Counted from the first letter of the stretch, positions 2,002-63,770 are shown. The stretch: 64,000 nucleotides of DNA from a virus (IMGVR_UViG_3300021399_000131:26387-90386), one strand, 5' to 3'. Program-made: numbers and translations. Notes: generated by a model not told the origin, from the letters alone.

Positions 2002-3219
2002 ATGAAGAGGAATCCGAATACTAATCATCTAACTAAAGACTATATCGAATCAAAGATTAGTCAAGTTAGTATTATGTCTAAATATCTTGACATACCTGTT
2101 GAGGTAATCAATGATTGTATAGAACATAATAAGCTTATTCCTTCTGTCTTTCGAGATGATGGAAAACGTCCTAGTATGGGATTTGCTATAAATAAAAAAG
2201 GACGTTTGAAAGTTAGAGATTTTGGAGGTATTGGAATATTCTTCGATGTCTATGATACTGTCGCTTATGTATTAAGTTTTATGTATGATAGAATAATAGA
2301 ACCTAATAAAAAGTCGGATTTCTATTTTATTCTTAAACATATTGCTTATACATTTAGCGACATTGTTGATAATAAAGAAGTAGATGAAAATATAGACGTT
2401 GAACTTCAAAATGCTTTAAGGAAGGGAAAACAAGCTCAAGCAATTATTGAAATTGTACCTCGTAGTTGGAACCGACATGATAAAGAAATATGGAATAAAT
2501 GGGGTATAAGTCTTAATTATCTTAATACTCACTTTGTTATACCAGTAGAACAATATTATATTAATAGAACTGCTGAAAGTGACCCAAAGTATTATTATAA
2601 AGAAAAAGACCCTTGTTATGCGTATATGTTAGGACAAAATAGAAGGGGAATTTATCTTATTAAATTATATTTTCCTCTTCGTAATCGTTTTGTAGATTTA
2701 AAGTTTATAACTAATTGTAATGTTCTTGAAGGTTTACCTAATTTAGAATTAGATAATTATGATTATATTCTTATTACTAAATCTAGTAAAGATAGATTAT
2801 CTATAGGAAATCATATTGCCAACAATCCTTTCTATAGGGGGGCTAATAAGCTAAATGTTGGTATTATTAATTTACCTAGTGAAAATTATAGATTAAAACA
2901 GAATGAATATGATTATCTTGTAAATAAGTTAAAACCTGAAGGACAAATATTTAGTTTATTAGATTTTGATGCTACTGGACGAAGTGGTGCTAAATATTTA
3001 CAAGAAACCTATGATATTCCATATTTATTTATTACCCGTGGCGAATTTGGTTTAGTAAATTACAAATGTAAAGATTTTGCTGAACTTTATGAGCACTATT
3101 CTAAACAAGAAATTACTAATTTTGTAAATGAAACTTTAACTTATGCGACTATTAAATATCCCGTATGTAGTGAGAGTGGAAGTGAACAAGCCTTTTCAGA
3201 TTATAACTTGCCATACTGA
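2002..3219 (+). CDS. DNA primase (DnaG/TOPRIM type)
   Basis: N-terminal SVFRDD..PSMGF...VRDFGG region and C-terminal TOPRIM DxD (LLDFDATGRSGAKYL...KDFAE); replication-gene context. Confidence 0.8.
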   Translation: MKRNPNTNHLTKDYIESKISQVSIMSKYLDIPVEVINDCIEHNKLIPSVFRDDGKRPSMGFAINKKGRLKVRDFGGIGIFFDVYDTVAYVLSFMYDRIIEPNKKSDFYFILKHIAYTFSDIVDNKEVDENIDVELQNALRKGKQAQAIIEIVPRSWNRHDKEIWNKWGISLNYLNTHFVIPVEQYYINRTAESDPKYYYKEKDPCYAYMLGQNRRGIYLIKLYFPLRNRFVDLKFITNCNVLEGLPNLELDNYDYILITKSSKDRLSIGNHIANNPFYRGANKLNVGIINLPSENYRLKQNEYDYLVNKLKPEGQIFSLLDFDATGRSGAKYLQETYDIPYLFITRGEFGLVNYKCKDFAELYEHYSKQEITNFVNETLTYATIKYPVCSESGSEQAFSDYNLPY

Positions 3220-3601
3220 AAAAGGAAGAACTTGTGAAATAATCATGACCTATCTCACTGAAGAAGAAGAATATAAGATTGATAACGATGAAGTTGTTAA
3301 ACTTGAAAGAGGTTCAGTAACTTTTGAAGTTAGTAAATCTAAAATCTACGCTTACGGAGAAATTGATTTTCGTACAGGAAGCGAAGATTATGAAGTTCTT
3401 GCTGATATGACTTGGCTTAATCATTGTACTCTGAGAGGGGTGAATGTGTTAAGTAATTATAATTATAAACATAATACAGCAACTTCGGATATTCCTAGTG
3501 GTAGATACTATGACTCAATGAGTCCTGAAGTAGTTGCACAATTTAAACATGGACAACTAGGAAAACCGAAACGTACTGTTATATTCAAAAGAATAATATG
3601 A
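3143..3601 (+). CDS. Hypothetical protein
   Basis: 152-aa ORF overlapping the primase end and ATGA-coupled to the next gene; the start codon is uncertain. Confidence 0.65.
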   Translation: MRLLNIPYVVRVEVNKPFQIITCHTEKGRTCEIIMTYLTEEEEYKIDNDEVVKLERGSVTFEVSKSKIYAYGEIDFRTGSEDYEVLADMTWLNHCTLRGVNVLSNYNYKHNTATSDIPSGRYYDSMSPEVVAQFKHGQLGKPKRTVIFKRII

Positions 3602-4047
3602 CAGAATTAGATGATTATACTGTTTCTTTGGATAAAAGTGATATTCTGTTAATAGAACAAAATATAGCTAAAAATGGGGCTGAGCAAGAATTTCTTAATC
3701 AGCTCCATTTTTTAGATTGTTCTAAAGAATTAACTTCTACTAATGGTACTAAAATTAGAGCAATTCAAACTATAGATTATAGATACCAAGATCATGTTTC
3801 TCAAGCTGTATACATACTAAATAATTACCTCTCCCGTAGAGAAGATTTGTTTAATCAACTTGTAGAACTTCATAGAGCTAATCTAAAGTTTGAAGAAGAT
3901 AATCCTCCTGTATGGTACACAAAGAAGAAATGGACTAAAAAGAGGAAAGCTAATGTTGTTCCAAAAGAACCTAAGAAACGTATTACTAAAGAAAGTGTTA
4001 AACAAATAAGACTTAATAGTCTAGTATTAAAACTTAAACCAAAATGA
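3598..4047 (+). CDS. Hypothetical protein with basic C-terminus
   Basis: 149 aa, ATGA overlaps on both sides. Confidence 0.7.
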   Translation: MTELDDYTVSLDKSDILLIEQNIAKNGAEQEFLNQLHFLDCSKELTSTNGTKIRAIQTIDYRYQDHVSQAVYILNNYLSRREDLFNQLVELHRANLKFEEDNPPVWYTKKKWTKKRKANVVPKEPKKRITKESVKQIRLNSLVLKLKPK

Positions 4048-5249: not shown

Positions 5250-5440
5250 ATGAAGAATGGTTATATATAATGGATTATGCTGATTGTAATATTTATAAAT
5301 TAAATATTACAGATATAGAAGATGACGATATTGAACGAATAATTGGACCTTATGGGTTTAATATTGACGAATGTGCTTATATGTATAGTGATTCTGAATT
5401 AGATAGTATTAAAGAATTAACAGAGGAGGACAAAGTATGA
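5246..5440 (+). CDS. Small acidic hypothetical protein
   Basis: 64 aa, ATGA-coupled to the ligase and to the next ORF. Confidence 0.65.
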   Translation: MNEEWLYIMDYADCNIYKLNITDIEDDDIERIIGPYGFNIDECAYMYSDSELDSIKELTEEDKV

Positions 5441-5700
5441 TTATATTTGCAATTTTAGGAATAATCTTTCTTGTAGCTATATTAGTAAATATTGTTGTTG
5501 CTATTATACAAGAAGTGTTATCGAAAGAAGACAATAGAGTTTATTGTATAAGTCATTGTTTTTATAAAGGCATTGATTGGATGATTATACCTACTATAGT
5601 TGTAGAGAAAGGTCATCTAGATAAGCATAGTGCTTTAAGTATTAGATTTCAATGGCTTTGCGTCAATTACGAATTGTTTTATCATATTAAAGAAGAATGA
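5437..5700 (+). CDS. Small membrane-anchored hypothetical protein
   Basis: N-terminal hydrophobic helix IIFAILGIIFLVAILVNIVVAII. Confidence 0.65.
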   Translation: MIIFAILGIIFLVAILVNIVVAIIQEVLSKEDNRVYCISHCFYKGIDWMIIPTIVVEKGHLDKHSALSIRFQWLCVNYELFYHIKEE

Positions 5701-5767
5701 ATATTGCATCTATAGATGATGAAGATGAAGATTCTATTGCTTATCGTATAGGTTAAATTAGTATTAT

Positions 5768-5818
5768 TAGCACCCCTATAGAAGAAATGTGATGAAATTC
5801 CATTCCTCTATAGGGGAT
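5768..5818. repeat. Inverted pair of CCCCTATAG motifs forming a hairpin (probable terminator or regulatory site)
   Basis: TAGCACCCCTATAGAAG at 5768-5784 and TTCCTCTATAGGGGAT at 5803-5818 are complementary. Confidence 0.75.
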
Positions 5819-5848
5819 TTATCATGCTAATTTGCTAAATTTCCTATC

Positions 5849-5921
5849 TCTCGTAACTTGTATTGCATTTTAGGTACAATATAGATAAGTCGTCCATCTG
5901 ACGAATTATCGTGTCTGAAAT
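5849..5921 (+). repeat. Dispersed ~73-bp intergenic element, copy A
   Basis: Aligns with 13752-13823 (TCTCGTAAC..TTGC.TTTTA..GATAA.TC.T.CATCT..AATTATCGTGTCT.AAAT). Confidence 0.75.
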
Positions 5922-5977: not shown

Positions 5978-5980
5978 TGT

Positions 5981-10940: not shown

Positions 10941-11140
10941 AATTTCGTGTAATTCGTAAACCTTTTTATTTTTCTAGTGCATCTGGTGATGCACTAGAAA
11001 AATATATTAGACCAGTTCTTCAAATGAAAATTCTATTCTTTTGGATTACTATAAAAGAGTTTTTATATGAAGATAAACTTAAAGCAAACAAAAATGCAAA
11101 TAGAGTGTATAATATTTTAATAAAAGAAAAAGAACTATGA
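10937..11140 (+). CDS. Small hypothetical protein
   Basis: 67 aa, ATGA overlaps at both ends. Confidence 0.55.
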   Translation: MKFRVIRKPFYFSSASGDALEKYIRPVLQMKILFFWITIKEFLYEDKLKANKNANRVYNILIKEKEL

Positions 11141-12198
11141 GTTATTCAGTTAAAGGTTTACCATGGTCTAGTGGTATAGGCAAAGATGTAAGAGATTGCA
11201 CTACTGCTAGAGAAGTAATGGAAAAAGCTCATCTTGATTGGGCTGTTGATAAATGTGAACTTGTTGCTAGAATGCCTTTCAGAATTGGAGCAGATAATCA
11301 AGTTAGTGAATTAATGGGTGATTTTGTACATGATGGTAATATTTATCGTGATTGTCCAAACGCTTTTGCTACTTATCGTACTGATAAAAATATTCCTTTA
11401 GGAATTGTTGCTACTAAATATGAAGTTGTTCAGAATATGGATGCTTTTAATTTCTTTGACGATGCTATTGGAAGAGGTAAAGCTGTTTGGCAAACTGCTG
11501 GACAATTTGGTTATGGTCATAAAATATTTATTTCTGCTAAATTACCTATTACTACAAAAGTAAAAGGTGACCCAGTAGAAAATTATCTAGTATTTAGTAA
11601 TTCTCATGATGGAAGTAGCAGTGTAAACATTTTATTTACTCCTATAAGAGTATTTTGTACTAATTGTTTACAAGCTGCTTTTAAAAATTCATCTGCTTAT
11701 CTTCGTATTCGTCATACTAAAAGTGCAAGAACTAGACTTTCTGAAGGAATTGAAATTCTCAAATTAGCTTGTGAATATGCTATAGATGCTCAAGATCTGT
11801 ATAATAGTCTTGCTGCTGTACAGTTAGGAGATAGAGAAGTATTAAGATACCTTGGAAGTCTAATACTTACTACAGGGGAGCAAGCTGCTCTAGAATTATT
11901 TGATGATGTTCGAGGATATGAAAAGCTTGCTTATCGTGATTATCTTACTATGGAACGTACTGGTATTAGTACTCGAAAAGCTAACAAACTTGCTACTATG
12001 TTTGATTATTATCAGAATGGTGTAGCACAAAAGAATATTGTTGGAACTGCATGGGGTGCATATAACGCTGTTACTGGATATTATAGTAATGTAGATAATA
12101 AAGAAGGTGAACGTAGGATGGATTCTCTTCTCTACGGGGGAGCTAATGTTGCTATGACTACCGCTCTTACTAATATTGTTAATCTTAAAGCTGCTTAA
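11137..12198 (+). CDS. DUF932-family (phage/plasmid-like) protein
   Basis: LGIVATKYEVVQN.DAF.FFD, YLVFSNSHDGSSSV, TPIRVFCTNCL, IRHTKS and GTAWGAYNAVT.Y motifs. Confidence 0.8.
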   Translation: MSYSVKGLPWSSGIGKDVRDCTTAREVMEKAHLDWAVDKCELVARMPFRIGADNQVSELMGDFVHDGNIYRDCPNAFATYRTDKNIPLGIVATKYEVVQNMDAFNFFDDAIGRGKAVWQTAGQFGYGHKIFISAKLPITTKVKGDPVENYLVFSNSHDGSSSVNILFTPIRVFCTNCLQAAFKNSSAYLRIRHTKSARTRLSEGIEILKLACEYAIDAQDLYNSLAAVQLGDREVLRYLGSLILTTGEQAALELFDDVRGYEKLAYRDYLTMERTGISTRKANKLATMFDYYQNGVAQKNIVGTAWGAYNAVTGYYSNVDNKEGERRMDSLLYGGANVAMTTALTNIVNLKAA

Positions 12199-12201: not shown

Positions 12202-12519
12202 ATGAATAAGAATAAGAATGATAATAGCAAGTATAAGAACATAGATTTATCGAATATTGATATTGCTAAGATAGACTATGCTAAAGTATTAAAAGATGCT
12301 AATGTTAATCATCCATCTCATTATTGCAATATAGATGGAATAGAATGTATAGACGTTGCTGAGCACTTTAATTTCAATATAGGTAATGCTATAAAGTATC
12401 TTTGGCGTGCAGGTCTAAAAAATAAAAATAAATATATTGAAGATTTGCTTAAAGCTAAATGGTATATAGATAGAGAAATTAAGCGTGTTAGCCCCCCTGT
12501 AGAAGAAAGTGATAATTGA
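12202..12519 (+). CDS. DUF3310-family protein
   Basis: VNHPSHY...IECID......GNAIKYLWRAGLKN...EDLLKAKWYIDREI. Confidence 0.85.
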   Translation: MNKNKNDNSKYKNIDLSNIDIAKIDYAKVLKDANVNHPSHYCNIDGIECIDVAEHFNFNIGNAIKYLWRAGLKNKNKYIEDLLKAKWYIDREIKRVSPPVEESDN

Positions 12520-13751: not shown

Positions 13752-13823
13752 TCTCGTAACGTCTGTTGCGTTTTATATATGAAGATGATAAATCCTTCAT
13801 CTAAAAATTATCGTGTCTTAAAT
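13752..13823 (+). repeat. Dispersed ~73-bp intergenic element, copy B
   Basis: Aligns with 5849-5921, including identical TCTCGTAAC and AATTATCGTGTCT blocks. Confidence 0.75.
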
Positions 13824-16745: not shown

Positions 16746-16780
16746 TAGAGGAAGCAATACACTTCCTCTATCGGGGAGTT
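16746..16780 (-). terminator. Hairpin after the RNAP gene that includes a CCCCGATAG motif variant
   Basis: TAGAGGAAG (16746-16754) / CTTCCTCTA (16762-16770); lies between the 4951-aa stop and the 932-aa start. Confidence 0.5.
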
Positions 16781-16782
16781 AA

Positions 16783-19700
16783 TCAATCTTCTTCTTTATC
16801 ACTAGTTTTCTTTTTATTTTTCTTCTTCTTTCTAGTTTCTTTTTTACCAACTTCATGTCCTCTTAAATCACCAGCATAACCTCTAGCACTTCCAAATACT
16901 GTACTACCTGTGTCACCAACTTTATAATATTGATTAGAATTAACAATATCAAATAAAGAATACAAACTAGAATACATTGGAATACGTCGTTTAATGTATA
17001 CCCAAAGTTTGTTTTGTCCAGCAAATCGTCCACTTTGATATGTCATATCATAATCTTCATCACCAGTTAACCATTTAAATGCTGCAACGACAGAACTAAA
17101 AGCATCACCTACAACACTTTGTGCAGCTACTGGAGTAGACATAAGTTTTTTAGTTTCACTCATTAATCCCCAAGGATTATACATAAAACATTCACTAGCA
17201 AGTCTATCCATTTCATATACAGCTAAGTTCCAACCAGGATTATCAAGAAACTCATCATCTGTATCTGCAATATACCAAAGAGCAACGAGTGTGAAGAATG
17301 CTCCAAGTGTTCCAGCAAAATCACCAAAATTTCTAAGAATATTGGCTCTTTCATATTCTGGAAGAATATGCCAAGTAGTAGCAAATTGACCAAAGAAATG
17401 TAAACTATGAGCAAAGAAATATTGAAGACCTTGAATAGCACCAAGTTGATCATCAGTTATACTAGGGTCAGAGGCTTTTATTTTTCTCCAGTTAAGAGAT
17501 ACAAAATCAGCCATAGATTGCCATAGTCCTTTTTCAACACTACCTCTAAATTCATTGAATAGTCCTCTGGCTCTATAACGTTTTAGCAGCCCTATAGGAA
17601 GATGTTTATGATATTGCATTACAAGACTTCCCCACCATTGTTTTTCGATATAAGCTGCACCATCTCTGTTATAAACTCCATGGATTTTATTATTGACTTT
17701 TCTTACACGTTCTGCAAAATTACCAAGAAGTTGTTCAGCTTCAGTAACTTTACCATTTCTATAGAATTGATTATGCAATGCTTCTAATTGACTACCTTCA
17801 ACAAAGCTCATATCTCCATCTTCTCCTAGTTTTAACTGAGAATACATATCTGGAAGTTCATCAAACTCTTTTATTAAATCATCTTCTGCTTCTTTACGTT
17901 TAGTAATAAATTCTTTTATTTGTTTTACTCCACTATGAATATAAGCCCATTCTACTAAAAGATTTTTTCTAAACCAAGCATAATCTTTAGCTTTATTTTT
18001 ATCTGCTTTTTCTTGCTCTTTAAATTTCTTAAATTCCTCTTTTTGCTCATCATCTAATATACTATTAAGTATGTCACCTTCTTTGTATCTTAGATATTCA
18101 GCACGATTCATATAAGTTACACCGTTTTCAGTTTCTACAAGTTTATGGCTTTTTAGCATAGCAAATAAAACACTATTTTGCATAAAATGCTCACCAAGAG
18201 TTTGAGGAGAATAAGTAAAGTTTCTTATACCTTCAGAAATAGATTTCAAATCTCTTTCTTTAATTAATCCTGTATGTTCGTCATAATCTACAACATTAAA
18301 ATATTTTATAATAGCATCTTGTTTACTATAAGAAATATTAGAATTATGAATAGTCTGATTATAAGCTCTTCTTGCATAACTTATTAAACCTCTTCGCCAT
18401 TCATTTGTAGCACTTCTCCAATGTTGAAAATATTCACTAGCTACACGTTCTCCAAGAATACCAGTAAGGCCTAATGTTACATTTGCAATACCACCACGAA
18501 TATTAAATGTCATATAGTTAGCACTGGTAAAAGATTGTAGAGCATTAGCAAATTTAGTGTAATTACCTTCTGGTTCTTTCCATTGGTCGAGCAATATTCT
18601 TCGCATAACTACTTCTAACTGCTTTATAACATTGTCATCTGTAGCCATATCATAAACTGTTTCACCGTCTGTATCACTAATTACTTGTAAATCTCCATTT
18701 ATACCATGAGTTCTAGTGTACATTTTCATGCGTTTTAGTTCTTCTTGTAAAAAATAGAGCTTTTGCTTATTTTCTTGAACAGCATTAAATCTACCAGCTT
18801 GAATTAAATAATTTTCTATTACTTTCAGCCAATCTCTGTCCATTAAAGACTCACGTAATTCTTTCAATTCATCTTGTAATTTAGCTATATCTTCTTCATT
18901 TTTTGCTACTCGTTCATTATATTCTTGTTCTGTAGCACATTGTTCAGGTGTAGGAGCATTCTTTCTAAGTTTTTCAATTTTTTCTTCAAGTGTTCTTGTT
19001 TGTTTATTATTTAATTCAGATGTCATAGGCATAATAGGAATTCTGTCATTATCATAATTCATTTCTTTATACCAAGGTTTAGTACCAGATTCTGTAGAAA
19101 CACCTATACCAAACAATTTAAGAGCTTCTTTTATTCCTAATTGTGCTGATAATTCTTCACGTTTTAATTCTTTAGGAAGATTACCATGTTTAAAATAACC
19201 TTTTCCTTGTCTATTTTGAGCACTTTCTAAAAGAGTTTGATACATATAATCTCTAGCAGCTTTTTCTACTTCATTTAAATCTGTATGACTATCATATGCA
19301 CCATTGTCTGAACCAGGAACATAATTTTCTGCAAGTCCTACATTAGGATCATAATTAGGATTCGCTTTATCTTCTTGAACAGTTCTATCAGTCTGAGAAA
19401 TATTAGGAATCCATTTACCTATAACATCTTCAGTATTTGTTTCATCTTCTGCAAAATCCGGATAATTCTCAGCAAAATACTGATTCAAATAATCAACATT
19501 GTATTCACGTCTAGTCCAACAAGAAAGAGGCTCATAACGTTTACTATATGGATTATATACATGATTATTCTCAAACCATTCTTCATAAGTGCCATTTTGC
19601 TCAGCTTCATGTTTAGCTTCGTAGTATGCTGGTAGTATAGTTGTAACAAAGGCATTCTTTATTATTTCTAATGCTTTAACTTTGTCAGTATCAGTATACA

Positions 19701-22700
19701 TTTCTTTTACTTTATCTTTAGGCTTAGCATAAGAGAACAAGAATTTATTAAATATAGGCTCACCATTTTCATCTACTGCTAAATCATCATCATCATCTTT
19801 TTCATACACTATATTTTCACTAATAGCTTGTTGCCATTCAACAGATTTACCGATTCCTCCATTAATAAGCCTATTAATTAAAGTTTTATTTATAACAAAA
19901 TCAACATTCTCATCTATCCATTTTTGAGTTTCTTTTGTTCTTTGATTTTTATTTCTATTTAATCTAAGTTTTTGATAAAGATCACCAATTTCTTTAATAA
20001 GAGCCAAACCTTCAGGAGTATCAGGAATTTTATGAAAATCTATTGTTTTAGTAGCTTCATTATATAATGGTCTAAGCTTTTTATTAAGCTCATCAATTAT
20101 TTTTATTCTTTCTACATTTACAGTAGATGTACCAGAAAGTTTATTATAGAAATATTTAGTGAATACTTCATTAGTTGGCTGAGCATTGCTGAGAAGAATT
20201 CTGTCAGATTCTATAGGAATTAAATCATTATGATAAAAATTATTAAGCATAATTTGTATCTTTTTTAATTCCTCAGGAGTAAGTAATCTAGCATCAATAT
20301 TTCCATATTTATCAGTAATCACTCTATCAGCAGCAATAGATCGTATATACCCCAATACAGCACTCGGTGTAGCGTATCCTTGTAAACCTAATATAGCCTT
20401 AGCTTTAGCAATTAAAGAAGAATACAGTTGTGGTAATCTGGTAGCAGCATCTTTAATTTCAGCTAAAGACATATTTTTTATGTCTAAAGCTTCAACTTTA
20501 ACAAGAACATATTTAGCATTAGTTGCTATCCATTTTTTAGCATTAACATAAGTTTCATTTTCCATTAGTACTGACAAAGGAGTTATTAATTCTCCATCAG
20601 CACCACGTTTTTCAAATGAAGATACAACTTGTAAGTTTCTTTCTAATGTTTCTTTAAAACCAAACTTTTCATCATATAAGAAATATGTTCTATCTAAATC
20701 TTGATTAGCAGTTATAAACTGGTCTAATATTCTTCCAGCTTCAATACTATAAATAGCTTCTTCATCACTGCAATTAGAAAAATCATATTCACTCTCAGTT
20801 AATACACCATATTCATCTAACTTATTTTCTACTCTTAAATTTTCAGCAGAAGTACGTTGAGTATATTCGTTTGTATTAGGGTCAATATAAGTTTCAGATG
20901 AACGAAGACTATAAATTTTATTTGTTATTTTCTGTATTTCTTGTAATTTATCTTCATCAATACCTTCTTCTGTAATATAATCATAAAGTTGAACACGTTC
21001 ATAATATAATTTATAATAAGTTTCTGCTAACCTAGGATTAGTATCTAAGAATCTTTCCAGCATTACACATTTCTGAATATAATATTCAGGAGAAGCTGGT
21101 TGATTACAATGAAGAGCTTTAAATTTATCAAATTCCAATTTAGCTCGCATATGTTTAATACTGCCTAATCCTCCATCAGGATCTTGAATAGCTGCATCAA
21201 TATTTGCTTTAAGTTCTTCTATTTTATCAGTGAAAGAACTATTATAATCTTGTACCCATCTTCCATGTTTATCTACCATCTTAGATACATCAAATCGTAA
21301 ACCTTTACGTTCAGCTTCTTCTTTGAATTTAGTCATTCTATTTCTAAATTCCTTAACATATCTAAGAGTAGCGATTCTTTGGGCATCAATATTACCTAGT
21401 ACATCTTTCATCATTATTTGCAAAAATGGAGTACCATTTTCAGCAATATCATTAAATCTCCACATATCACCATAGGTTTTCCAAAAGCCATCCATTATAT
21501 CTATAAAGTTTTCACGTATAAGTGGATTACTACTTATATCTTCAGCTTTACGATGTTTATACATATCTTTACAATGTTCTATTGGAAGAGCTTTAACCAT
21601 CGCTATATCTGCTTTTATACTCTCTAATGCAAACTTTTCAGCTTCAGTTGGATTTTCTAATTTAATACTTTCATAAATACCGAAATGTCTTATAAAAGAT
21701 TCAGCTTCAAGTATGTTATCAAGATATTCTCTTTCAGCGGTAATATCTGAAAATACATGAATCATGGCTTTATCATCTTGCATTCTTACAGCTCTAACAG
21801 AATCGTCAGGATCAGGTCTAAATACATCAAAATTATGTTTAAGTTGCATAGCTGCAGCATGAGCAAACTTAGCAGTTTCTTGGTCAACTAGAGTTTTATT
21901 TTTATCTATAGTAGAAATACTTCTAGTTACATTATTATTATGCATCATTTGTAAATATTTAAACGATGCTAAATCACCTTTATTTCTAGAAACTCTATTA
22001 GCATAACCTATAGTATCACTATGACAATCTAATATAGTTCTAGCATTTGCAGTATCATCATTATCGTTTTCTGTAGTGCTATCTCTAGAAAAGTCTAAAT
22101 CAACATAATATAGTTGGTCTATAAATTGTTGATTAGAATTTTGAGCAGATTTAATAATTTCTCGTAAAGAAGAATTTTCTTCAGAATTAGGATTTTCTCT
22201 AGGTTTAAAGTTACCTTCTCCATCTTTTGTTGCTAAATATTTGTAATTTATACTGTCCCACCAATCACGAGAAGTTTCTCCTGATGTAGCATATTTACCA
22301 ATTCTTACTTTTAATGCAGTACCATCTGGAAGAACAATTGTTTGTGGTGAGACAAATAAATCCCCTGTAGTATGAATGTATGAAGAAAAAGCTTTATTTC
22401 TAATAAATAGAGTTTGTGTAACTCCAGGTCTAAAGTGAGCTTTAATTCTATTTTTTATTAGTAACCATTGACCACCAACTTTTTCAGCTAATTCGTCAAG
22501 ATTAAACGGGTCTGTAGGAATAGAATCAGTTAAAGCTTTTGCATCTTTATACCATGCAGTTCTTTCTCTAGTTTCTTCAAATCTTTCAATTCTTTCTTTA
22601 ATCCATTCTTTATCAAAATTAGCAACAAAGTTTTCTCTTAATTCTGCTATAATACTTCTATATAAATCTCTATCTAAAATTTTTCTATTATTTTTTGCAT

Positions 22701-44887: not shown

Positions 44888-47800
44888 TTGTATGGAGTTG
44901 TTATAAACATTACATTTTCTAATTTAAAATTAACTCTAGAATCTAAAACAAATCTACCTATAAAATATTTTCCATATATAAGAGATTTTAAATCAGCATT
45001 AGGATATTGATCAACTCTGCCATCAATACTTTCTAGTTCATAAATCAAATCTTCTTTATACGGTTTAGGAGTAAATGCTCCTACTGTCAAAGGTTGATTG
45101 TTCAATATATTTCTAAAATAATTAAAAGAATATATTCCTAAATTGTAACTAGGATATTTATAAGCGTTTTCACTAGTTATAGTATGGTCATCATCTCTTT
45201 CTAATTCTGTAACTTCTTCACCATTTCCTGTTTTGTATAAAGCAAAATCGTTTCTTCTAGTATTTATAAAATTTAAATCAGTAGAAGCTAAGTCACTGTA
45301 AATTCTTAACCATTCACCAGGATACGGTTCCCCGTATTCTTCAGCCATGAAAGGTTTAAGAGTATATCGTTTAAGACGACCAACTCTTTCTATATTACTA
45401 AGCCATTCATTAGCATATTCAACTACTGCTTTACATGTCCATTGTATAGATTCTAATACTTTAACTTGTTGATATTGCTCATTGTATATAACATCTATAA
45501 TAGAAGCTTTTATATTATAACCGTCAATATTATCTACTATTTTATTAGGAAATAAATCATCGTATCTATCTAGTTCTTTATATCCTATAGCAGTACTATC
45601 TACAACATAAATATTTTTAGTATTCAAAAAATAACATTTGTCTTTAGTTGTTATAGTATGGTCATAATCAAAATCATGAAGACTTACGAAACTGTTAGTT
45701 TTCAAATTATAAGACAGTGTAACAAAATGACCGCTAGCAAATTTTATATTAATAAAAAGTCGATCATTATAAAAATCACAAGCAAAATCTATATTAAGCA
45801 CACGAGAGAAGTTCATCAATTTCTCTATAGGGGAGCTTAATTCTCCAAGTTTATTATCTCCTGCATAACCATAAATTATATTAGAATCTCCATCATAAAA
45901 GAAATAGCCAGCTTGAGTAATAATAGAATTACGCTTATCTTGAAGACCTCCATACCCATATTGAGAACCAAACATTTCTTGAATACCAGATTCAAAGGGT
46001 TGATTTTCTTTTAATGCTACATCTTCACCGCCGTTAGCAGTGATTGTGTTTGAACCAACAAACCTAAATAGAGCATCTTGTGTATGAACAAGTATAGATT
46101 CACCAACAGCAGCTAGATTAGTAATCTTTCCTTTATTAGTAGGAACATTATAGTAATCACCTGATTCAAATCTATAAATATTAACTACAGCTTCATCACC
46201 TTCAAGTTTTGAACTACGAACAGTATTATCAAACGTAGTTAAATTCTTACTAGTAAACTTTCTAAAATAACGCCTACTATAAGAATAATACATTGATTTA
46301 AGTTCATATATATCTGAAAGCTGAATACTATTTATAGCAACAAGTGTAGCTTTAGGTTTCTCTTGTCCTTCTTCATCAATCAATTTTACTTTTGCTACTA
46401 CGTCTAAAGCTAATGATATAAAGTTAAGATTGTAATTAGAATAAACTCTATAAAAATTACTATCTTTGTATTGACTCCAAACACCAACTTCTATTTCATC
46501 AGCTAGCGAAATAGTATCATTTGTTATAGTTTTTGTATAAACATCTGAATCAGAATAATATAAATCTAAACTATCCAAAGGTTTTTTAACTAAACCTATA
46601 TATCCTAAAAGATTTTCTTCTTTGTAATCGCCAAAACTATCGTCTTTTATAAATGGAGTACACTTTACAAGTTTTACATCGTCTGCGTCATTTGTATAGG
46701 GCAAATCTATAAAAGCGTATCCAGGACTAAAATGATTGTCAACTAAAACAACTTTACCACTACTACCAAACAAAACAAGATACGTACTGTCAAAACTGCC
46801 ATAATAATTTCCTAACGTTCCACTAGACCAGTTTTTAGAAACTATTGGAAGTTTAGATACAGGTGATACAAGTCTTGTATCTAAATCAATACAATCTCCA
46901 ACTTTTATATTGTCTAAACTATGTATATTAAAAATTGTAGCAACTTTGTCTTTATAGTGTTGAATAGATATGAAACAAGAATTATATCCTGGTGGATACA
47001 TTATATTAGAAAATATAGGATATATTATAGTTCCTAAAGCATTAGGTTCTTCTATAGTAATGCCCTCTTTATTTCCTATTTGATACCCATTAGTAATCTC
47101 ACCATTTTTATTCATATAGTGAATAAAGAATTTATAACTTTGATAAGGTATCAAAGTAGTAAGATTATTCATCTCTTCTACTATTTCAGTTTCGTGGGTA
47201 TCAATAGTATTACCGTCATAAATTTTAATATTATCAAAGTTGACATCAAATGATATTTCTATTTCATATAATTCAGAAGTATAATTAGGTTTATCACTTT
47301 GTCTATCACTTAATCCTTCTGCTCTATAAATACCTTCTACATATTCTTGCTCATGACCACTATAAGTTCCTGAAAGGTCTTTTACCTTTTTTACATACCA
47401 AAACTTTCTAGCATAAAATTTAGAAGTTTCTATTTTATTTGTATTAGTATTTATTTTAGCAGTTGCAGTGGTAAATAGGGATGTTATTACATTATCTATA
47501 TTTTCACTAAATGTGAGAGCTCCAGACATATCCATAATAGCAGCAATAGGAAAAGCAGGATTAAGTTTTAACCAAGTCTTATATCCACTCAATGCTGCAA
47601 CATCATCAATCCACTGGTCATCGTCAGTAGTTACATAATGCCAATTTGAACTATGACCCACATTGTATAGAGCATTAGCAAATCCTTTATATGTATCACT
47701 AGCATTATACTCATAAGCCGAATACATATATTTACCCTCATCTTCTGTAGTTAAATGAATAGGATAACAATTATATCCCATATTTTTAAAAGGACTGTCA

Positions 47801-49919: not shown

Positions 49920-50711
49920 TTAATCTCTAGGTCTAAAAGTACTATTATAAAAGAAATTAGCCCAACCTTCATTTTTGTTTTTACTAATATCCATTTTAAC
50001 AGCATTAGCAGCTTTAGTTTTAAGAAGACTCCACTGAATAAAAGGATTAGTAACTTGACTGTTAGACTTTAAATCATATACTGGATGCTTACTTCCACGA
50101 CTTAAATATTTAAACATACAATACCAAGAAAGAGCTTCAAGAAGAAGACCATTGTCGTAGATATAAGGACACTCACAATTATAATATTCATCATAGTATG
50201 TAGCAGTTTCATAACTTTCTACAACTATGCTATCAGTATCAAAATTCAATTCTATGTTGTTTCCATCTAAAACAAAATTTCTACCACTAGCAGAAGTTAC
50301 AGTACCTATTAAAACAGTATTAACTCCTGACTTGTTGGTAGAATCAAATACACCTATTTCCTTGTTATCAGTATTTCCTACAGGGGTGCTAGTATTGCAT
50401 CTACAGTTATCAGCTTTACCAAAATTGTTATTACAATTACATCCTTTACTACTATCAAGTTCTTTTATTTCATTGCCATTACTATCATAAACTTTAAGTT
50501 CTGTAGCATTAAGTTCACAAGGAAATTGAGCTATTCGTTCTGATACTTCTAATGTTCTTCTTTTCTTTTCAGAAGGTAGAATTTTCATTTGTGAAAGAGC
50601 ATCAGTAACCCAAGCAGCAACTCTAGGAATCCAATCACTTTCACTAATATTAAAGTCATTGTCTATTTTTCCTATTAGTCGATGTAGCGTTAATTGATTT
50701 TTGAGCTTCAT
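49920..50711 (-). CDS. Tail ring / tubular protein
   Basis: LIGKIDNDFNISESDWIPRVAAW...ALSWYCMFKYL; position immediately upstream of the muzzle gene. Confidence 0.6.
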   Translation of the reverse strand: MKLKNQLTLHRLIGKIDNDFNISESDWIPRVAAWVTDALSQMKILPSEKKRRTLEVSERIAQFPCELNATELKVYDSNGNEIKELDSSKGCNCNNNFGKADNCRCNTSTPVGNTDNKEIGVFDSTNKSGVNTVLIGTVTSASGRNFVLDGNNIELNFDTDSIVVESYETATYYDEYYNCECPYIYDNGLLLEALSWYCMFKYLSRGSKHPVYDLKSNSQVTNPFIQWSLLKTKAANAVKMDISKNKNEGWANFFYNSTFRPRD

Positions 50712-51612
50712 TTCTTATAAATTTAGTATATAACATTTTATTAACTTTATTACAAAGAGTTAATTTAGTTTTTAAATCTACAGAAAGTTCACAAATTTTA
50801 TCAATATCGCCATTACATTCTTTTATCAGATCTTCATTAGTTTTACCTCTAACTTCAGCTCCTCTATAATCAGTAATGTCTAATTTAAGTTTTCTACCAT
50901 CTATAAGCTTGCAATTAATAAGAGGTATCTCATAACAATATTCATTATTCATAAACACTCTTACATCTTCAGCTTTGTATTCTAAACCATTTCTAGCACA
51001 CCAATCAGCTTCTTCTTTATTATAAATTCGTTTACCTTCTTTTATTAACTCTTCTTTTCTTCTTTTTGTAGCAGCATAATCTAAAGGTCTTTTAGGATTA
51101 TTTAGATGACAACGGTTAATACATATCCAACCCATATTGTTATCAAATACATAACCAGCACCATCTAATATTAACTTCTTATGAACCTCTGTATAATATG
51201 CTTTTAATATATCTTTGTATTGATACAAGCCTAAGCTTAATATCTTATCTACTAAAGCTAAATCCTTTTTGTATAAGTATATTTGTTTTTGATATTTAGC
51301 TAACTTATACAAATCATATAAGTCTGCAACCAACTCATATTCATCGCGTCTATTAACAAAAGCACCTTTACTCGCTTTAAGAAAAGTTCCAGTACTATAT
51401 TCATTATTAACAAACTCAGGATATTTTGTCAAATCAAAAGAATAGTCTTCTTTATATTTAGTTGCATTATCTTTTATTTCATTATATAATTGACTACATT
51501 CTTTTTCTAGTTCTTCTAGTTGTGTAGTAATATTATTTTTCTTGTCTTTACATACTTCCATAAGATGTTTATAGTATGTACGAAAATTAACAGGAGTATT
51601 TTTTATCGCCAT
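50656..51612 (-). CDS. Conserved crAss protein, possibly IHF/HU-like
   Basis: VHKKLILDGAGYVFDNNMGWICINR resembles an HU/IHF core; crAss-like phages carry IHF-like genes in this position (recalled). Confidence 0.45.
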   Translation of the reverse strand: MAIKNTPVNFRTYYKHLMEVCKDKKNNITTQLEELEKECSQLYNEIKDNATKYKEDYSFDLTKYPEFVNNEYSTGTFLKASKGAFVNRRDEYELVADLYDLYKLAKYQKQIYLYKKDLALVDKILSLGLYQYKDILKAYYTEVHKKLILDGAGYVFDNNMGWICINRCHLNNPKRPLDYAATKRRKEELIKEGKRIYNKEEADWCARNGLEYKAEDVRVFMNNEYCYEIPLINCKLIDGRKLKLDITDYRGAEVRGKTNEDLIKECNGDIDKICELSVDLKTKLTLCNKVNKMLYTKFIRNEAQKSINATSTNRKNRQ

Positions 51613-52599: not shown

Positions 52600-53010
52600 T
52601 TAATTACATTTATCGAAAACAACACAACTAACAGCATCAAACATTTGTTTAACAATATATCCTATAGTATATGCAGCATCTTCTCCTTTGTCAGGAATAC
52701 GATAATAACTAAATATACCTTGTTTGATATGCTCTGCTTCATGTACTATAGAAGACAAATATTCAGCTTTAGATGTGTGCCTATTAAATATAACAACACT
52801 ACATCTGTGTTTTAGAGAATTTATAGTAACACCATAAGCATCATGAGAGAGATGATATTTGATATTATCAATTTCCTCTACAGGGGTGCTAACATCTAAT
52901 AATTCTCTACGTACAATATTAAAATAGTCATAGTCTATATTATAATAAACTATGACTGTCCAATAATGTTTTATATTAAAAACTTGCTTAATCATATCAT
53001 ATCGTCCCAT
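52600..53010 (-). CDS. Cassette gene 6: small HExxH metallopeptidase-like protein
   Basis: SIVHEAEHIKQ followed by GEDAAY (third-ligand Glu position of minimal zincins). Confidence 0.7.
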   Translation of the reverse strand: MGRYDMIKQVFNIKHYWTVIVYYNIDYDYFNIVRRELLDVSTPVEEIDNIKYHLSHDAYGVTINSLKHRCSVVIFNRHTSKAEYLSSIVHEAEHIKQGIFSYYRIPDKGEDAAYTIGYIVKQMFDAVSCVVFDKCN

Positions 53011-53424: not shown

Positions 53425-53469
53425 GGTAGATTGATTACACCCCCTGTAGAAGGAATGTATCAATCTACC
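53425..53469. repeat. Intra-cassette hairpin with CCCCTGTAG in its apex
   Basis: GGTAGATTGAT (53425-53435) / ATCAATCTACC (53459-53469) perfect stem enclosing CCCCTGTAGAAGG. Confidence 0.75.
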
Positions 53470-59166: not shown

Positions 59167-59887
59167 AATACAACGTTTCTTCTTTAACTTCTGTCTCACC
59201 ATTATAAATAACAGTAACAACAAAAGTATGTTCACCAACTTCAATATCAGTAACATCTTCAAATTTTACTACAGGTTCTCCATCAAATGTATAACTTATA
59301 GCTGCATCATTATAGTTTATTTCTTCTCCATTATAAGATACAAACAAATTACAACAAGCTACAACTTTGTCATCTGTATGTTTATGATAATAAGGAGTAA
59401 ACTCTACATACAAGCCATGTGGAGAACCAGTTGTTTCTAAATCAGATTCGCTAAGTTCAAAATGTTGATTAAATCCATCTCCAAACTTATGAGCATAAAG
59501 TTCTCCATCTTCAACATCGATCTCAAACTTTACTGTTTCTCCACAAGTAATGTAAGATTTAATCATTCCATTTTCATCTATAGGGAAGGTAAATTCTATT
59601 TCACCTTGAGTACCATTATAAATTTGACAAACTTTAGCTTCAACATATTTAATCAAAGTTTCAGCAAGTTTTGTCTTTCCTAGCTTTCTAGCAGCAACTG
59701 CTGCATTAAACATATTAAAACAATCAATAACGTTGCTATTTCTATCTTTGCAGGATGCTTTACAATCTTTAAGCATATCTTCACCATAGTCAGCAAGCAT
59801 TACCATTATTTTATGATATACACAAACATATTCTTTTGGAATAGTTATATATACATATTCAGGATTTATTTCAGTTCGAGCACTCAT
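59153..59887 (-). CDS. Tail hub-type structural protein
   Basis: Cys-containing helical N-domain (DCKASCKDRN..VIDCFNMFNAAVAA) plus beta-rich C-domain; structural context. Confidence 0.55.
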   Translation of the reverse strand: MSARTEINPEYVYITIPKEYVCVYHKIMVMLADYGEDMLKDCKASCKDRNSNVIDCFNMFNAAVAARKLGKTKLAETLIKYVEAKVCQIYNGTQGEIEFTFPIDENGMIKSYITCGETVKFEIDVEDGELYAHKFGDGFNQHFELSESDLETTGSPHGLYVEFTPYYHKHTDDKVVACCNLFVSYNGEEINYNDAAISYTFDGEPVVKFEDVTDIEVGEHTFVVTVIYNGETEVKEETLYYELS

Positions 59888-60120: not shown

Positions 60121-60125
60121 AAACG

Positions 60126-60749: not shown

Positions 60750-60763
60750 AAGATTAAAAGATT

Positions 60764-60793
60764 GTCTACCATCCCTATAGAGGAATGGTAGAC
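60764..60793. terminator. Hairpin with CCCTATAGAGG apex
   Basis: GTCTACCAT (60764-60772) / ATGGTAGAC (60785-60793); lies between the 287-aa and 207-aa genes. Confidence 0.6.
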
Positions 60794-60802
60794 TATGATA
60801 AC

Positions 60803-61666: not shown

Positions 61667-61689
61667 ATTATTAAATTAATTAAAAGTTA

Positions 61690-62655
61690 TTAATCTCTAT
61701 CAGCTCGGGGATTTTGTCCATATCCCTCGTTTCTGTAATTATTTCTCGTATTCTCTCGTTGTTGTTGTTGTTCTTGTTGCTGACTAGCATATAAAGAACC
61801 ATTAACTGCAACACGATACAAATCAACAGCATGTTTAACAATATCAACGTGCATGCTTTCAGGAAGATCACAATCCACATTTAATTCTTCACTAGCAATA
61901 TCTTCTACATATTTAACAACTGCAGGTTTCTTAACATAAGAAATACGAATGTTATAAGGAAGAAGATTATAGTCAAGCATATAAGAATCATCATGTCCTT
62001 GCGCCGCATAATTTTTAAACTTGTCAATATACAAATCTAAAACAGAACCATCATAATCTTGTCTATCACTTGTTTTACTGTTATATACAACAGCTATAGG
62101 ACTTCTAAGTCTAGGCTTTAACACAAAATCATTTAGTGTATCTGCAAGAAATGCATCATCTATAAGTCTAATAGGAAAATAATTTGTTACTTCTCCATCT
62201 TCATCATACTCTACTGTGGCATTTCCATTTACTCCTCTAGTTGCAGGTTTGTAATTTATAGACATATCAACTAAAAATAAATAATCTGGAATAGATACTT
62301 TAGTATAAGAAGAACCAGGTGAAGTCCAAGCAGTACTAAGTTTACCTATTTTTGTTTCAGATTTATTAAGTTGAAACATTGCCCAAGTTATAGAACCTAC
62401 TTCAGTAGGAAGTGTAGGAAGAACAGCTACAGTATAAAGAGTTCTGAAAGCATTGATTTGACCAATTTTAGAATTATCAGTAATAACTCTATCGTTGGTC
62501 AAACCAATATTTTGTTGAATTAGCTGATTGATAGTATCACTGATGCTCGTATTTATCAATAGGTCAATCTGTTCGGGAAGAATAGCTCGAACATTTTGCA
62601 TACCCATTTGTTGAGCATACTGACGAAAAGATACGTGCATTTCAGCTATGTTCAT
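61690..62655 (-). CDS. Tail ring / neck structural protein
   Basis: MHVSFRQYAQQMG...ILPEQIDLLIN...YVKKPAVV...CDLPESMHVDIVKHAV; ring-protein-like termini. Confidence 0.6.
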   Translation of the reverse strand: MNIAEMHVSFRQYAQQMGMQNVRAILPEQIDLLINTSISDTINQLIQQNIGLTNDRVITDNSKIGQINAFRTLYTVAVLPTLPTEVGSITWAMFQLNKSETKIGKLSTAWTSPGSSYTKVSIPDYLFLVDMSINYKPATRGVNGNATVEYDEDGEVTNYFPIRLIDDAFLADTLNDFVLKPRLRSPIAVVYNSKTSDRQDYDGSVLDLYIDKFKNYAAQGHDDSYMLDYNLLPYNIRISYVKKPAVVKYVEDIASEELNVDCDLPESMHVDIVKHAVDLYRVAVNGSLYASQQQEQQQQRENTRNNYRNEGYGQNPRADRD

Positions 62656-62666
62656 AATTACGAGTA

Positions 62667-63770
62667 TTAAAAGATTTTAAGTTTATTTTCGTAAGCAGTA
62701 CGAACATCTTTATTATTAGGATTCTCAAACCATGCAATAGCATCGTTCATATTAGCACCAATAAATGTTCCATCTGCCGTACTAATTTGCTGATTAAACT
62801 CAGAACGTACAAGTTCACCACGAGCAATTAATGTTTCAATGAAAGCTCTAACATTAATATGTTTATCAGTAAGAAGCTTATTAAATTTATCAGGATTAGT
62901 ATTGATATATTCCATCATAATAGCTTCTTTCTGAGTTCTGTCTTTAAGAATAGCTTGACCAATGTTATCACCACGTAAAGAAGAAATCTGAACAAACACA
63001 GCATTGAATTTAGCGTCAGTTCCACCAAGTTCAATAAAGTTCTGCATTGCCTTCATCTTTTCCTTTGTAAGCTTTCTCTGCTTCTCTTCTTCTTTAGCTA
63101 CATCTTTAATATAGAAACGAAGACTAGAATCAGAATTAATCAAAGCTGTATCTTTAGCAACATCATTATATAATAGACAATGTCTATACATAAGATATTC
63201 TTCAAGATTCTCAGGACGTCCATACTTATGTTTAGAACTCTCCAAAGTATTAAGAGCATCTATCTTACGTTTCAAAGCTTCTTTAATTGCTGCAATATTT
63301 GCTCTATCAACTTTTTCATACTCATCATTAATTCTATCTTCTTCAGCTTTTACTTTTAGATAATCAGCCTTTTTACGATAGATAAATGTGGTATTCAGAT
63401 TGTAATCATTCTCACTAATAGTAAACTGAATGTTACTGAGCCAAGACTTAACTCTACTAATAAACTCTGGATTACTAGGTGATAGACCTATAAGAGCAGG
63501 AAAGTAAGCATTTACCTCTTCAGAATTAGAAGAAAGAATTTGACAAGAACGATAAGAAGAACCAATAGTTTCTTTACGATGTCCAAGAACTTTCATATTA
63601 ACTTTACGATAATTTGAATAGTTATGAACAAGACTAATAGTAACTTGTCGTTTATCAATGTATTCTTGGTTGAGAGAATCATCCATTTCTTCTACAGGGG
63701 TGCTAGTCTTTGTAGTAGGCTCTTGAACTTTATTCTCGTCACTAGTTTCATTAGAAATTTTAAGTGCCAT
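62667..63770 (-). CDS. Conserved crAss protein immediately downstream of the MCP
   Basis: 367 aa; GHRKETIGSS, YGRPENLEEYLMYRHCL, FIETLIARGEL. Confidence 0.65.
   Translation of the reverse strand: MALKISNETSDENKVQEPTTKTSTPVEEMDDSLNQEYIDKRQVTISLVHNYSNYRKVNMKVLGHRKETIGSSYRSCQILSSNSEEVNAYFPALIGLSPSNPEFISRVKSWLSNIQFTISENDYNLNTTFIYRKKADYLKVKAEEDRINDEYEKVDRANIAAIKEALKRKIDALNTLESSKHKYGRPENLEEYLMYRHCLLYNDVAKDTALINSDSSLRFYIKDVAKEEEKQRKLTKEKMKAMQNFIELGGTDAKFNAVFVQISSLRGDNIGQAILKDRTQKEAIMMEYINTNPDKFNKLLTDKHINVRAFIETLIARGELVRSEFNQQISTADGTFIGANMNDAIAWFENPNNKDVRTAYENKLKIF

Follow-up and report, generated by a model that had tools for sequence, protein, structure and literature searches.

Why does the word CCCCTRTAG recur along this phage genome, on both strands, within genes and between them, and what reads it? 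The most abundant phage in the human gut is a member of the Intestiviridae, the family to which this phage belongs, and, to our knowledge, replication in this family is largely unstudied. The window (the whole stretch of DNA that was analysed, 64,000 nucleotides of a 90,386-bp genome) contains 15 exact copies of the word vs. 0.2 expected from dinucleotide shuffles, in which the maximum was two, while the complete genome has 20. Every coordinate and strand given for these 15 copies in the original prediction was correct, as were the positions of the 14-mer TAGCACCCCTRTAG, at 5768 on the plus strand and at 35763, 50378, 52878 and 63692 on the minus strand. The over-representation is confirmed to be real.

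A long, asymmetric motif

CCCCTRTAG is the core of an asymmetric motif of ~22 nt, yTAGCnCCCC-NN-TAGARGAAAt, whose information spans 16-22 nt. Similarity among sites stops at ~22 nt and the flanks are not shared. As a whole, the genome has 34 sites scoring above 15 bits, 24 of which are in the window, vs. less than one site above 12 bits in second-order Markov simulations. The six near-matches listed earlier, at 12132, 16768, 24519, 32058, 59578 and 60772, proved to be genuine weaker members (17-23 bits), to which those at 3831, 17589 and 44444 were added. The 34 sites are split into 16 plus and 18 minus, with a similar balance in the relatives. No published description of the motif was found in the literature. 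The sites of the window, and two of the genes concerned, are the following (G001, G002 and G005 are relatives).

2002-3219, plus: DnaG-family primase gene, candidate reader of the motif (PHROG 12622, E=2e-58)
2823-2846, minus: motif site, 30 bits, antisense within the primase gene
3825-3848, plus: weak site, 18 bits, CTCCCGTAG variant, sense, ORF 3598-4047
5767-5790, plus: 34 bits, intergenic; forms a convergent inverted pair with the next site (left arm)
5799-5822, minus: 23 bits, intergenic, right arm of that pair, 35 bp from 5773
11861-11884, minus: 26 bits, antisense, DUF932 gene 11137-12198
12123-12146, minus: 22 bits, CCCCCGTAG variant, antisense, same DUF932 gene; also present in G001
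12488-12511, plus: 36 bits, sense, ORF 12202-12519, stop 8 codons further on
16759-16782, minus: 23 bits, CCCCGATAG, in the intergenic gap that separates the 4951-aa gene from a 932-aa gene
16783-31638, minus: virion-RNAP-like gene, 4951 aa, DFDID at residue 1897
17583-17606, plus: weak site, 21 bits, antisense, 4951-aa gene
22356-22379, plus: 22 bits, antisense, 4951-aa gene
24510-24533, minus: 23 bits, TCCCTATAG, sense, 4951-aa gene; 194 bp from the place of a same-strand site kept in three relatives
28974-28997, plus: 23 bits, antisense, 4951-aa gene; 807 bp from a site kept in six relatives and missing here
29967-29990, minus: 26 bits, sense, 4951-aa gene
32049-32072, minus: weak site, 17 bits, CCCCTGTAA, sense, 2679-aa gene; 928 bp from a site kept in six relatives and missing here
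35754-35777, minus: 33 bits, sense, 2679-aa gene, one member of a divergent pair
35844-35867, plus: 31 bits, antisense, 2679-aa gene; region and orientation retained in G001, G002 and G005
44438-44461, plus: 21 bits, CCCCGTTAG, antisense, gene 42779-44887
45816-45839, minus: 25 bits, sense, 1677-aa gene
50369-50392, minus: 31 bits, sense, gene 49920-50711
52869-52892, minus: 36 bits, sense, gene 52600-53010; G005 has a site in the same column
53435-53458, plus: 32 bits, intergenic, opposing the direction of the flanking genes
59569-59592, minus: weak site, 18 bits, TTCCCTATAG
60766-60789, plus: 23 bits, ATCCCTATAG, intergenic, within a 7-bp palindrome; G001, G002 and G005 use the same gap and orientation
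63683-63706, minus: highest-scoring site at 38 bits, sense, in gene 62667-63770 at its codon 23

Constraint on the DNA, conservation and spacing

Orientation is independent of transcription, as predicted: 12 of the 34 sites are sense, 11 antisense and 11 intergenic, the latter being co-oriented with transcription in five cases and opposed to it in six. Intergenic DNA is preferred, since it makes up 8% of the total and holds 32% of the sites (P=4e-5), and the 4951-aa virion-RNAP-like gene carries five sites in both orientations. The shared peptides described for the sense copies (STPVE, STPIE, SPIE, PPVEE and others) were also recovered, 11 of the 12 sense copies being in one phase, xCC-CCT-RTA-GAR. 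Since the antisense copies use other frames, two in number, and 11 of the 34 sites are intergenic, it is the DNA that is constrained and not the protein. In 500 runs of a synonymous-codon shuffle that preserved each protein and the codon usage of each gene, a mean of 0.93 and a maximum of three coding copies were obtained, vs. 14 observed. The motif overrides codon choice in essential genes; those coding for the primase, for the virion RNA polymerase and for tail proteins are examples.

Variants of the motif were found in six other Intestiviridae genomes, including those of the prototype crAssphage, crAss002 and Rudgehvirus, and in all Intestiviridae genomes tested the most over-represented word is the genome's own variant. 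The family core reads CCCC-Y-R-T-R-R-A-R-G-A. In all seven genomes its T, which follows a GC-rich run and stands within (R)T(R), is invariant; the conserved flank on the 3' side measures 7-10 nt, and the conserved 5' part ranges from 8 to 14 nt depending on the lineage. An analogous word, CTCCAGAAG, which has no G-T step, is found in crAss001 (Steigviridae). Conservation extends to the sites themselves, several of which share alignment column and orientation at 38-50% protein identity, some occupying the same codons in different subfamilies. The primase-gene site (2823-2846) has identical column and orientation in 7/7 Intestiviridae genomes, and a site in the 127-aa gene that lies directly upstream of the gene for the large terminase is conserved in 6/6.

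Concerning the hosts, the motif shows no enrichment across 41 Bacteroidales genomes (0-9 matches per 2-8 Mb, mostly at or below the reversed-pattern control): it belongs to the phage, not to the host. Selection on the DNA and a phage-specific reader, both put forward in the original prediction, are thus strongly supported by the synonymous shuffle, the conservation of orthologous sites and the unenriched host genomes. The same 41 genomes exclude a host Chi signal, which had been among the suggestions. A DNA uptake sequence was also rejected, the carrier being a phage and the Bacteroidales genomes unenriched. The uptake sequences of Pasteurellaceae and Neisseriaceae (USS/DUS) resemble the motif in their tolerated frames within genes, intergenic inverted pairs and use of both orientations, but they serve duplex uptake by competent bacteria, whereas this motif is carried by a virulent phage and follows per-strand spacing rules.

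These rules emerge from the seven genomes. In 13 of their 14 strand sets, sites of one strand are much more evenly spaced than random (CV 0.31-0.63 vs. ~0.9; combined Fisher P=2e-21), with ~15 sites per strand, a mean spacing of ~6 kb and gaps of up to 10-20 kb; when the strands are pooled, regularity is much weaker. Among the pairs of sites within 1 kb of each other, 51 are on opposite strands vs. only one on the same strand, the latter being 11861-11884 and 12123-12146 of the present genome. Opposite-strand pairs 37-109 bp apart, some of them conserved, occur in 6/7 genomes (all but G001). Plus and minus sites alternate irregularly from one end of the genome to the other, and the KOPS-like polarity that had been considered is absent. 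Also, four sites conserved in the relatives are missing here and each has a same-strand site 194-928 bp away, which suggests that spacing, rather than precise position, is under selection. The best explanation is a putative reader, belonging to the phage machinery, that reads each strand separately.

What might read the motif

A tentative answer, to which we attach a probability of about 0.3, is that the motif is a cis-acting signal used by phage-encoded machinery one DNA strand at a time, and that its sites are preferred primase start sites. Each strand would need to be covered by a site every ~6 kb, at which the phage's own DnaG-family primase would start primers preferentially, perhaps almost obligatorily; plus-strand sites would serve forks moving in one direction and minus-strand sites the opposite forks. 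The C-run would template a G-rich primer, whose annealing would be stable at the genome's 30% GC, and docking would take place on the purine-rich 3' flank. A primase untethered from a helicase would itself require strong sites, and G4-type priming is a precedent for this.

The strand-specific coverage, the replacement of sites with spacing preserved and the restriction of the signal to the phage were counted in favour of priming. A DnaG-family primase is encoded by every motif-bearing genome. GenBank relatives of the product of 2002-3219 are named 'DnaG family primase', and residues ~220-350 of its AF2 model are similar to the TOPRIM part found in DnaG, T7 primase (gp4) and Twinkle, with Z 7.6-8.0, a weak match that may reflect a common arrangement. 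No CxxC pair (zinc finger) was seen in the primase translation and no DnaB-type helicase domain in a six-frame search, both of which were also counted for the priming reading. So was the indifference of the sites to the direction of transcription, which in crAss001 follows ORF orientation (PMC8375218). Among the functions originally listed, a replication signal is the best remaining candidate, whereas the organiser, KOPS, host Chi and mini-hairpin proposals fare worse.

Several points count against priming. A mean spacing of ~6 kb is long for Okazaki fragments, and we know of no primase that needs a 16-22-nt site. Tiling of both strands genome-wide presumes forks going both ways everywhere, as in recombination-dependent or multi-origin replication. 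We infer both the primase as reader and priming as the process, and the motif points to the primase no more than to any other phage protein. Primases of the DnaG/T7 type recognise a core trinucleotide whose central base is a pyrimidine, usually T; the argument from the central T does not extend across families because the crAss001 word lacks the G-T step, and fixed primer length is undefined because the 5' part varies between lineages.

The closest known parallel to the priming reading is phage T7, whose active primase sites consist of 5'-(G/T)2GTC-3' and a 10-nt 3' flank, with ~14 consolidated sites 1-6 kb apart (PMC12839067). In the Intestiviridae as in T7, there is an invariant T after a GC-rich run, a 3' flank of ~10 nt, a restricted number of sites at intervals of a few kb, one-strand reading and a DnaG-family (TOPRIM) primase. 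The T7 core, however, has 5 nt, 177 occurrences and soft site selection (PMC12839067), whereas the putative priming motif described here spans 16-22 nt, is almost absent by chance, is positionally conserved and is found on both strands. Sequence-specific priming without a helicase tether, one site per strand, is known from the G4-type origin and from ssiA/ssiB of RSF1010. On the priming reading, the likeness lies in sequence-specific sites on each strand for which no tether is needed, but those sites are 40-100-nt hairpins present once or twice per replicon, vs. ~15 sites per strand and no conserved hairpin here. What is new is the combination of both strands, even per-strand tiling and spacing-preserving site replacement, for which there is no described counterpart.

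Recognition by a phage nickase, with site-specific single-strand breaks made on both strands of packaged or replicating DNA, is a doubtful though serious competitor. A long, asymmetric, phage-specific and mostly intragenic motif with lineage variants is reminiscent of the phiKMV consensus and of TACTRTGMC, the nick motif of tf and Rembedalsseter (PMC3517423, PMC11780129). The nick motifs of T5, phiKMV-like, tf/LUZ24-like and Rembedalsseter phages are over-represented, mostly coding, 9-19 nt long and conserved by group with co-evolving variants, their function being obscure (PMC3517423, PMC11780129). Strand-specific reading fits as well, and the phage encodes a DNA ligase. However, described nick motifs lie unevenly on one strand, clustered toward one end, whereas both strands are tiled evenly here, and the close opposite-strand sites of 6/7 genomes, if both were nicked, would give staggered double breaks in AT-rich DNA. 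Intergenic enrichment is likewise foreign to Rembedalsseter-type motifs (PMC11780129), and no conserved nickase was identified in the phage.

A Chi-like 'self' mark, by which a phage helicase-nuclease or recombination enzyme would limit degradation or direct recombination from breaks in either direction, is unlikely, although it is with the nickase one of the two main rivals. Oriented one-strand reading, even cover of each strand and one site per ~3 kb do resemble Chi, whose density in E. coli is comparable; the high information content would tell phage from host DNA, and an exonuclease, a Dda/RecD-like helicase and a Mu Gam-like protein are among the products of the phage. Yet known Chi sites (RecBCD/AddAB) are host words of 5-8 nt, much shorter than this motif, with which the chromosome of the host is enriched. 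Among the phage proteins no enzyme like RecBCD or AddAB was recognised, and a Gam-like end protector lowers the need for Chi.

The chances are slim that a duplex DNA-binding phage protein (IHF-like, HTH or small terminase) organises, condenses or packages the genome through these sites. They are many, dispersed and conserved, and the 6/6-conserved one is in the gene just before that of the large terminase, a frequent location of small-terminase genes and pac sites. Such a binder would nevertheless be blind to orientation, so that pooled sites should obey the spacing, whereas mutual avoidance is confined to sites of the same strand. The IHF-like or parS-like organiser proposed earlier leaves this same-strand evenness and avoidance unexplained, and ORF 50656-51612, its IHF-like candidate, has no Pfam, NCBIfam or PHROGs match. 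A parS-type organiser was rejected, clustered palindromic sites being expected instead of an asymmetric, dispersed motif.

Promoters, terminators or other RNA-level signals, e.g. a mini-hairpin promoter for the virion RNA polymerase, are very improbable. The reverse complement, TTCTTCTAYA-GGGG-nGCTA, bears what we take to be a loose resemblance to T7/SP6-type promoters, and some intergenic copies are upstream of genes. The virion RNAP of phi14:2 does transcribe denatured DNA, but its early transcripts have no common motif and its middle promoters are sigma-70-like (10.1101/2020.03.07.982082). Sense and antisense copies are about equal, many sites lie deep within giant genes, and transcription in crAss001 tracks the ORFs; N4-type promoters are argued against because half of the sites oppose transcription. 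The postulated CCT-RTAG-AGG mini-hairpin does not hold either, the relatives' version, CCCCCGTAGAAGAA, being unable to form the stem: no conserved hairpin was found, G005 sites folding no more stably than random windows, and no Rfam family matches the motif. Finally, a selfish mini-element or a peptide constraint, to which the inverted pairs and shared peptide might point, is largely refuted by the lack of common flanks, the orthologous positions over deep divergence and the use of three frames plus intergenic copies.

Significance for the Intestiviridae

After protein coding, the motif is among the strongest constraints on Intestiviridae genomes, and it marks an essential DNA transaction. Its reading would be a protein-DNA interaction specific to the phage, co-evolving lineage by lineage, and the motif itself is a compact marker with which to recognise and classify crAss-like contigs, even where these have been mis-binned into bacterial MAGs. 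As versions of it are carried by cultured phages (crAss001, crAss002 and Rudgehvirus jaberico), the question is open to direct test. One bold and rather doubtful form of the priming reading is a sequence-programmed discontinuous synthesis, in which a primase devoid of zinc finger and DnaB-type partner would start chains only at the ~15 sites of each strand. If true, a conserved, evenly spaced 'priming code' would be superimposed on the genes of these phages, a mode of lagging-strand initiation undescribed for any replicon.

Occurrence of the motif and constraint on the DNA

All 15 exact CCCCTRTAG copies listed in the original prediction lie at the places it gave, against 0.20 expected from dinucleotide shuffles of the window (maximum 2), and the whole 90,386-bp contig (GC 30.8%), of which the window covers bases 26387-90386, contains 20. 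Alignment of the copies extended the motif to about 22 nt and showed it to be asymmetric: yTAGCn-CCCC-NN-TAG-ARGAAAt, in which the spacer NN is variable (TG, TA, GT, TT, CG or GA). A weight-matrix scan put the number of sites above 15 bits at 34 for the genome and 24 for the window, the latter including all six near-matches previously noted; in second-order Markov genomes, even a cut-off of 12 bits left less than one site.

As for their location, 12 sites are in the sense orientation within genes, 11 are antisense and 11 intergenic; since the non-coding share of the genome is only 7.9%, intergenic sites are enriched (P = 4e-5). When synonymous codons were permuted within each gene, leaving proteins and codon usage unchanged, a mean of 0.93 coding copies was obtained (maximum 3 in 500 shuffles) vs. 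14 observed. A single phase, encoding S/T-P-V/I-E, is used by 11 of the 12 sense copies: the phase with TAG in frame is impossible, and the remaining one would impose Cys/Tyr-Arg-Arg. Two further frames, F-Y-R-G-A and T-T-G-E/D, occur in the antisense copies. The recurrent peptides are therefore a tolerated by-product of the DNA word, and selection is on DNA, neither on protein nor on RNA; frame usage and the synonymous shuffle uphold the earlier suggestion of selection at the DNA/RNA level behind the repeated peptides, as far as DNA is concerned.

Concerning structure, an Rfam scan of the window matched zero families and no secondary structure shared by the motif sites was found. The proposed CCT-RTAG-AGG mini-hairpin has an impossible stem in the relatives' version, CCCCCGTAGAAGAA, and the sites of G005, a related IMG/VR contig, fold no better than random windows, a comparison that led to the rejection of a mini-hairpin or single-stranded DNA structure as a shared feature.

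Another word, TAGGGTCA, is also over-represented (8 copies, about one expected):

Window 17463, 20877, 28449, 34680, 36078, 36162, 36702 and 58458, plus strand: copies of TAGGGTCA

These plus-strand copies occur only in minus-strand genes, and so keep one sense with respect to the genes. The reverse complement reads ..GAC-CCT-AAT.., Asp-Pro-Asn; an effect of peptide or codon appears more likely than a second DNA signal.

Counterparts in related phages

An exact-pattern scan of IMG/VR returned many contigs of about 90 kb with several matches each. Five of them, searched whole, hold 6-18 copies of CCCCNNTAGARGRA, with zero matches for the reversed control. Three of these five (G001, G002 and G005) were compared as whole genomes, together with the prototype crAssphage (BK010471), crAss002, Rudgehvirus jaberico, cr127_1, crAss001, cr50_1 and cr124_1; the nearest named relative of the phage is cr271_1 (Crassvirales, Intestiviridae, Obtuvirinae). 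Motif-derived words are the top over-represented k-mers in every Intestiviridae genome tested.

Motif variants and numbers of sites in Intestiviridae genomes
G001, G002 and G005: TAGCtCCCC(C/T)GTAGAAGAA, 24-31 sites
crAssphage: ACtCCCCGT(A/G)GAGGATGGA, 32 sites
crAss002: TTCCCCC(G/A)TA(A/G)AGGAG, 31 sites
Rudgehvirus: CCCCTGTA(A/G)AGGA, 30 sites

The core common to these variants is a C-run followed by Y, R, T, R, R, A, R, G and A. The conserved 5' part varies from 8 to 14 nt depending on the lineage, and a fixed 12-nt "primer-template" length is thus not borne out.

In crAss001 (Steigviridae), where the Intestiviridae core is not present, CTCCAGAAG occurs 29 times (13 sense, 12 antisense and 4 intergenic), with the same regular spacing within each strand; synonymous shuffles average 3.8 copies and reach 10 at most. 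In the Suoliviridae cr50_1 and cr124_1, a simple k-mer screen, which cannot prove absence, gave no comparable signal. Finally, cr127_1 (Crevaviridae, MT774393) carries a different repeat of about 30 nt, possibly a counterpart of the Intestiviridae signal, with the core CGCCCTTGTGGCCAT, in 10 copies, five per strand, that are not at the Intestiviridae site positions; two of them form an inverted pair 200 bp apart (~42040 and ~42240) within the giant gene.

Two sequence records from ruminant guts, L115 (JAGCWW010000084.1, 79 kb) and L118 (JAFRAK010000011.1, 94 kb), are filed under "Acholeplasmatales" and "Bacilli" MAGs. The motif core occurs 13-20 times in them, and their dUTPase shares 64-74% identity with that of this phage. 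Both probably belong to crAss-like phages and ended up in bacterial MAGs by mis-binning.

Strand-specific spacing and conserved positions

Spacing was analysed in seven Intestiviridae genomes (this phage, G001, G002, G005, crAssphage, crAss002 and Rudgehvirus). In 13 of the 14 strand sets, the sites of one strand are spaced much more evenly than random placement would give, with a CV of 0.31-0.63 vs. about 0.9 (combined P = 2e-21), while pooling both strands gives far less regularity (CV 0.63-0.84, with weak significance in four genomes and none in the other three). Only one same-strand pair is less than 1 kb apart, vs. 51 opposite-strand pairs (P = 2e-14), where about 33 and 35, respectively, are estimated by chance; opposite-strand neighbours come as close as 35-50 bp. 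The strands are therefore tiled independently, each with a site about every 6 kb.

A duplex-binding organiser should treat same-strand and opposite-strand neighbours alike, and the strand-specific spacing speaks against this part of the original prediction; for the "IHF-like" ORF put forward with it (50656-51612), none of the three libraries Pfam, NCBIfam and PHROGs gave a family match at the cut-offs applied. Nor does a KOPS-like reading hold, polarity being absent. Close opposite-strand pairs were also rejected as origins, 19 being convergent and 12 divergent, without preference in arrangement or distance.

Two intergenic locations deserve description. A non-coding element of about 73 bp, already recognised as repeated (window 5849-5921 and 13752-13823), starts at 5849, 30 bp past the convergent pair 5773(+)/5808(-); pair and element sit between genes of the replication module, in a gap of 280 bp, and together make a possible origin region. 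At window 60766-60791, an intergenic site lies within a perfect 7-bp palindrome, CTACCAT...ATGGTAG, and three relatives have the motif in the same gap and orientation.

Since proteins of the relatives are only 38-50% identical to those of this phage, saturation would be expected at synonymous positions. Several motif sites nevertheless keep their alignment column and orientation in orthologs, while the flanking nucleotides are fully diverged.

Sites at the same alignment column and orientation
Window 2832, antisense, primase gene: 7 of 7 genomes
479-aa gene after the DNA polymerase, sense: 7 of 7 genomes
127-aa gene immediately upstream of the large terminase, antisense: 6 of 6 genomes

Three more genes have a site conserved in six of the seven genomes. 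Four sites conserved in relatives are missing here, each with a same-strand site 194-928 bp away, for which the chance is about 0.4 per case. This modest but consistent evidence indicates that spacing rather than exact place is preserved.

The DNA polymerase gene itself, upstream of the window (genome 20675-24103; L090:7675-11103), is split into two ORFs of 417 and 350 aa, which align to the halves of a single gene of about 770 aa in G001, G002 and G005. The insert of about 1.1 kb carries a GIY-YIG-type homing endonuclease ORF (genome 22234-22980) and, given the split gene and this ORF, is probably an intron.

Candidate readings of the motif

The reading we tentatively favour, with a probability of about 0.3, is that the motif provides priming sites for the DnaG-family primase of the phage (window 2002..3219, plus strand). 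This gene product has a PHROG match and GenBank homologues named as DnaG-family primase, and its model shows a TOPRIM-like fold (Z ~8); Foldseek returned only weak primase matches, and neither the primase nor the 479-aa protein had a significant PDB match by sequence. Priming is favoured because such a primase is encoded, with no zinc-finger Cys pairs seen in its translation and no DnaB-type helicase domain detected in a six-frame search. It is also favoured by the precedent of T7, where a 10-nt 3' flank forms part of the primase site and some 14 effective sites are spaced 1-6 kb apart (PMC12839067), and by the C-run, which, in AT-rich DNA, would template a G-rich primer. The model assumes forks that would travel in both directions over the whole genome. 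Against it, we know of no primase with so long a site, the G-T step is missing from the crAss001 word CTCCAGAAG, and the length of the conserved 5' part is inconsistent between lineages.

Strand nicking at the sites, the closest described phenomenon, appears rather unlikely: every described case is one-stranded and uneven (PMC3517423, PMC11780129), and opposite-strand pairs so close together would risk double-strand breaks. Improbable, too, is a Chi-like mark read by the phage itself, whose geometry fits but which comes without a candidate reader.

The Chi-like proposal in its host form, or an uptake sequence, is ruled out by 41 Bacteroidales genomes, in most of which the core is no more frequent than the reversed-pattern control; in two "MAGs", every hit was located on a mis-binned phage contig. 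Promoters or terminators fit poorly with sites deep inside the giant genes and with the sense/antisense balance (12 vs. 11), which bears out the earlier remark that orientation is independent of transcription. In phi14:2, early transcripts are without a shared motif and middle promoters are sigma-70-like (10.1101/2020.03.07.982082), and transcription in crAss001 follows ORF orientation (PMC8375218). A methylation target is unlikely, since one preprint found methyltransferase genes in none of its crAssphage genomes.

No account of the motif turned up in literature searches on its sequence and on promoters, nicks, primase and methylation in crAss phages. It is similar in kind to known genome-wide oriented motifs but differs from each in its defining features. 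The present analysis adds the 1-vs-51 strand test, the spacing-preserving replacement, the host-genome control, the crAss001 analogue and the comparison with T7 primase sites.

As a whole, the process that reads the motif must be single-stranded in its action, run both ways over the whole genome, and be harmed by large gaps; lagging-strand priming, strand nicking and the control of a strand-tracking nuclease or recombinase are the candidates.
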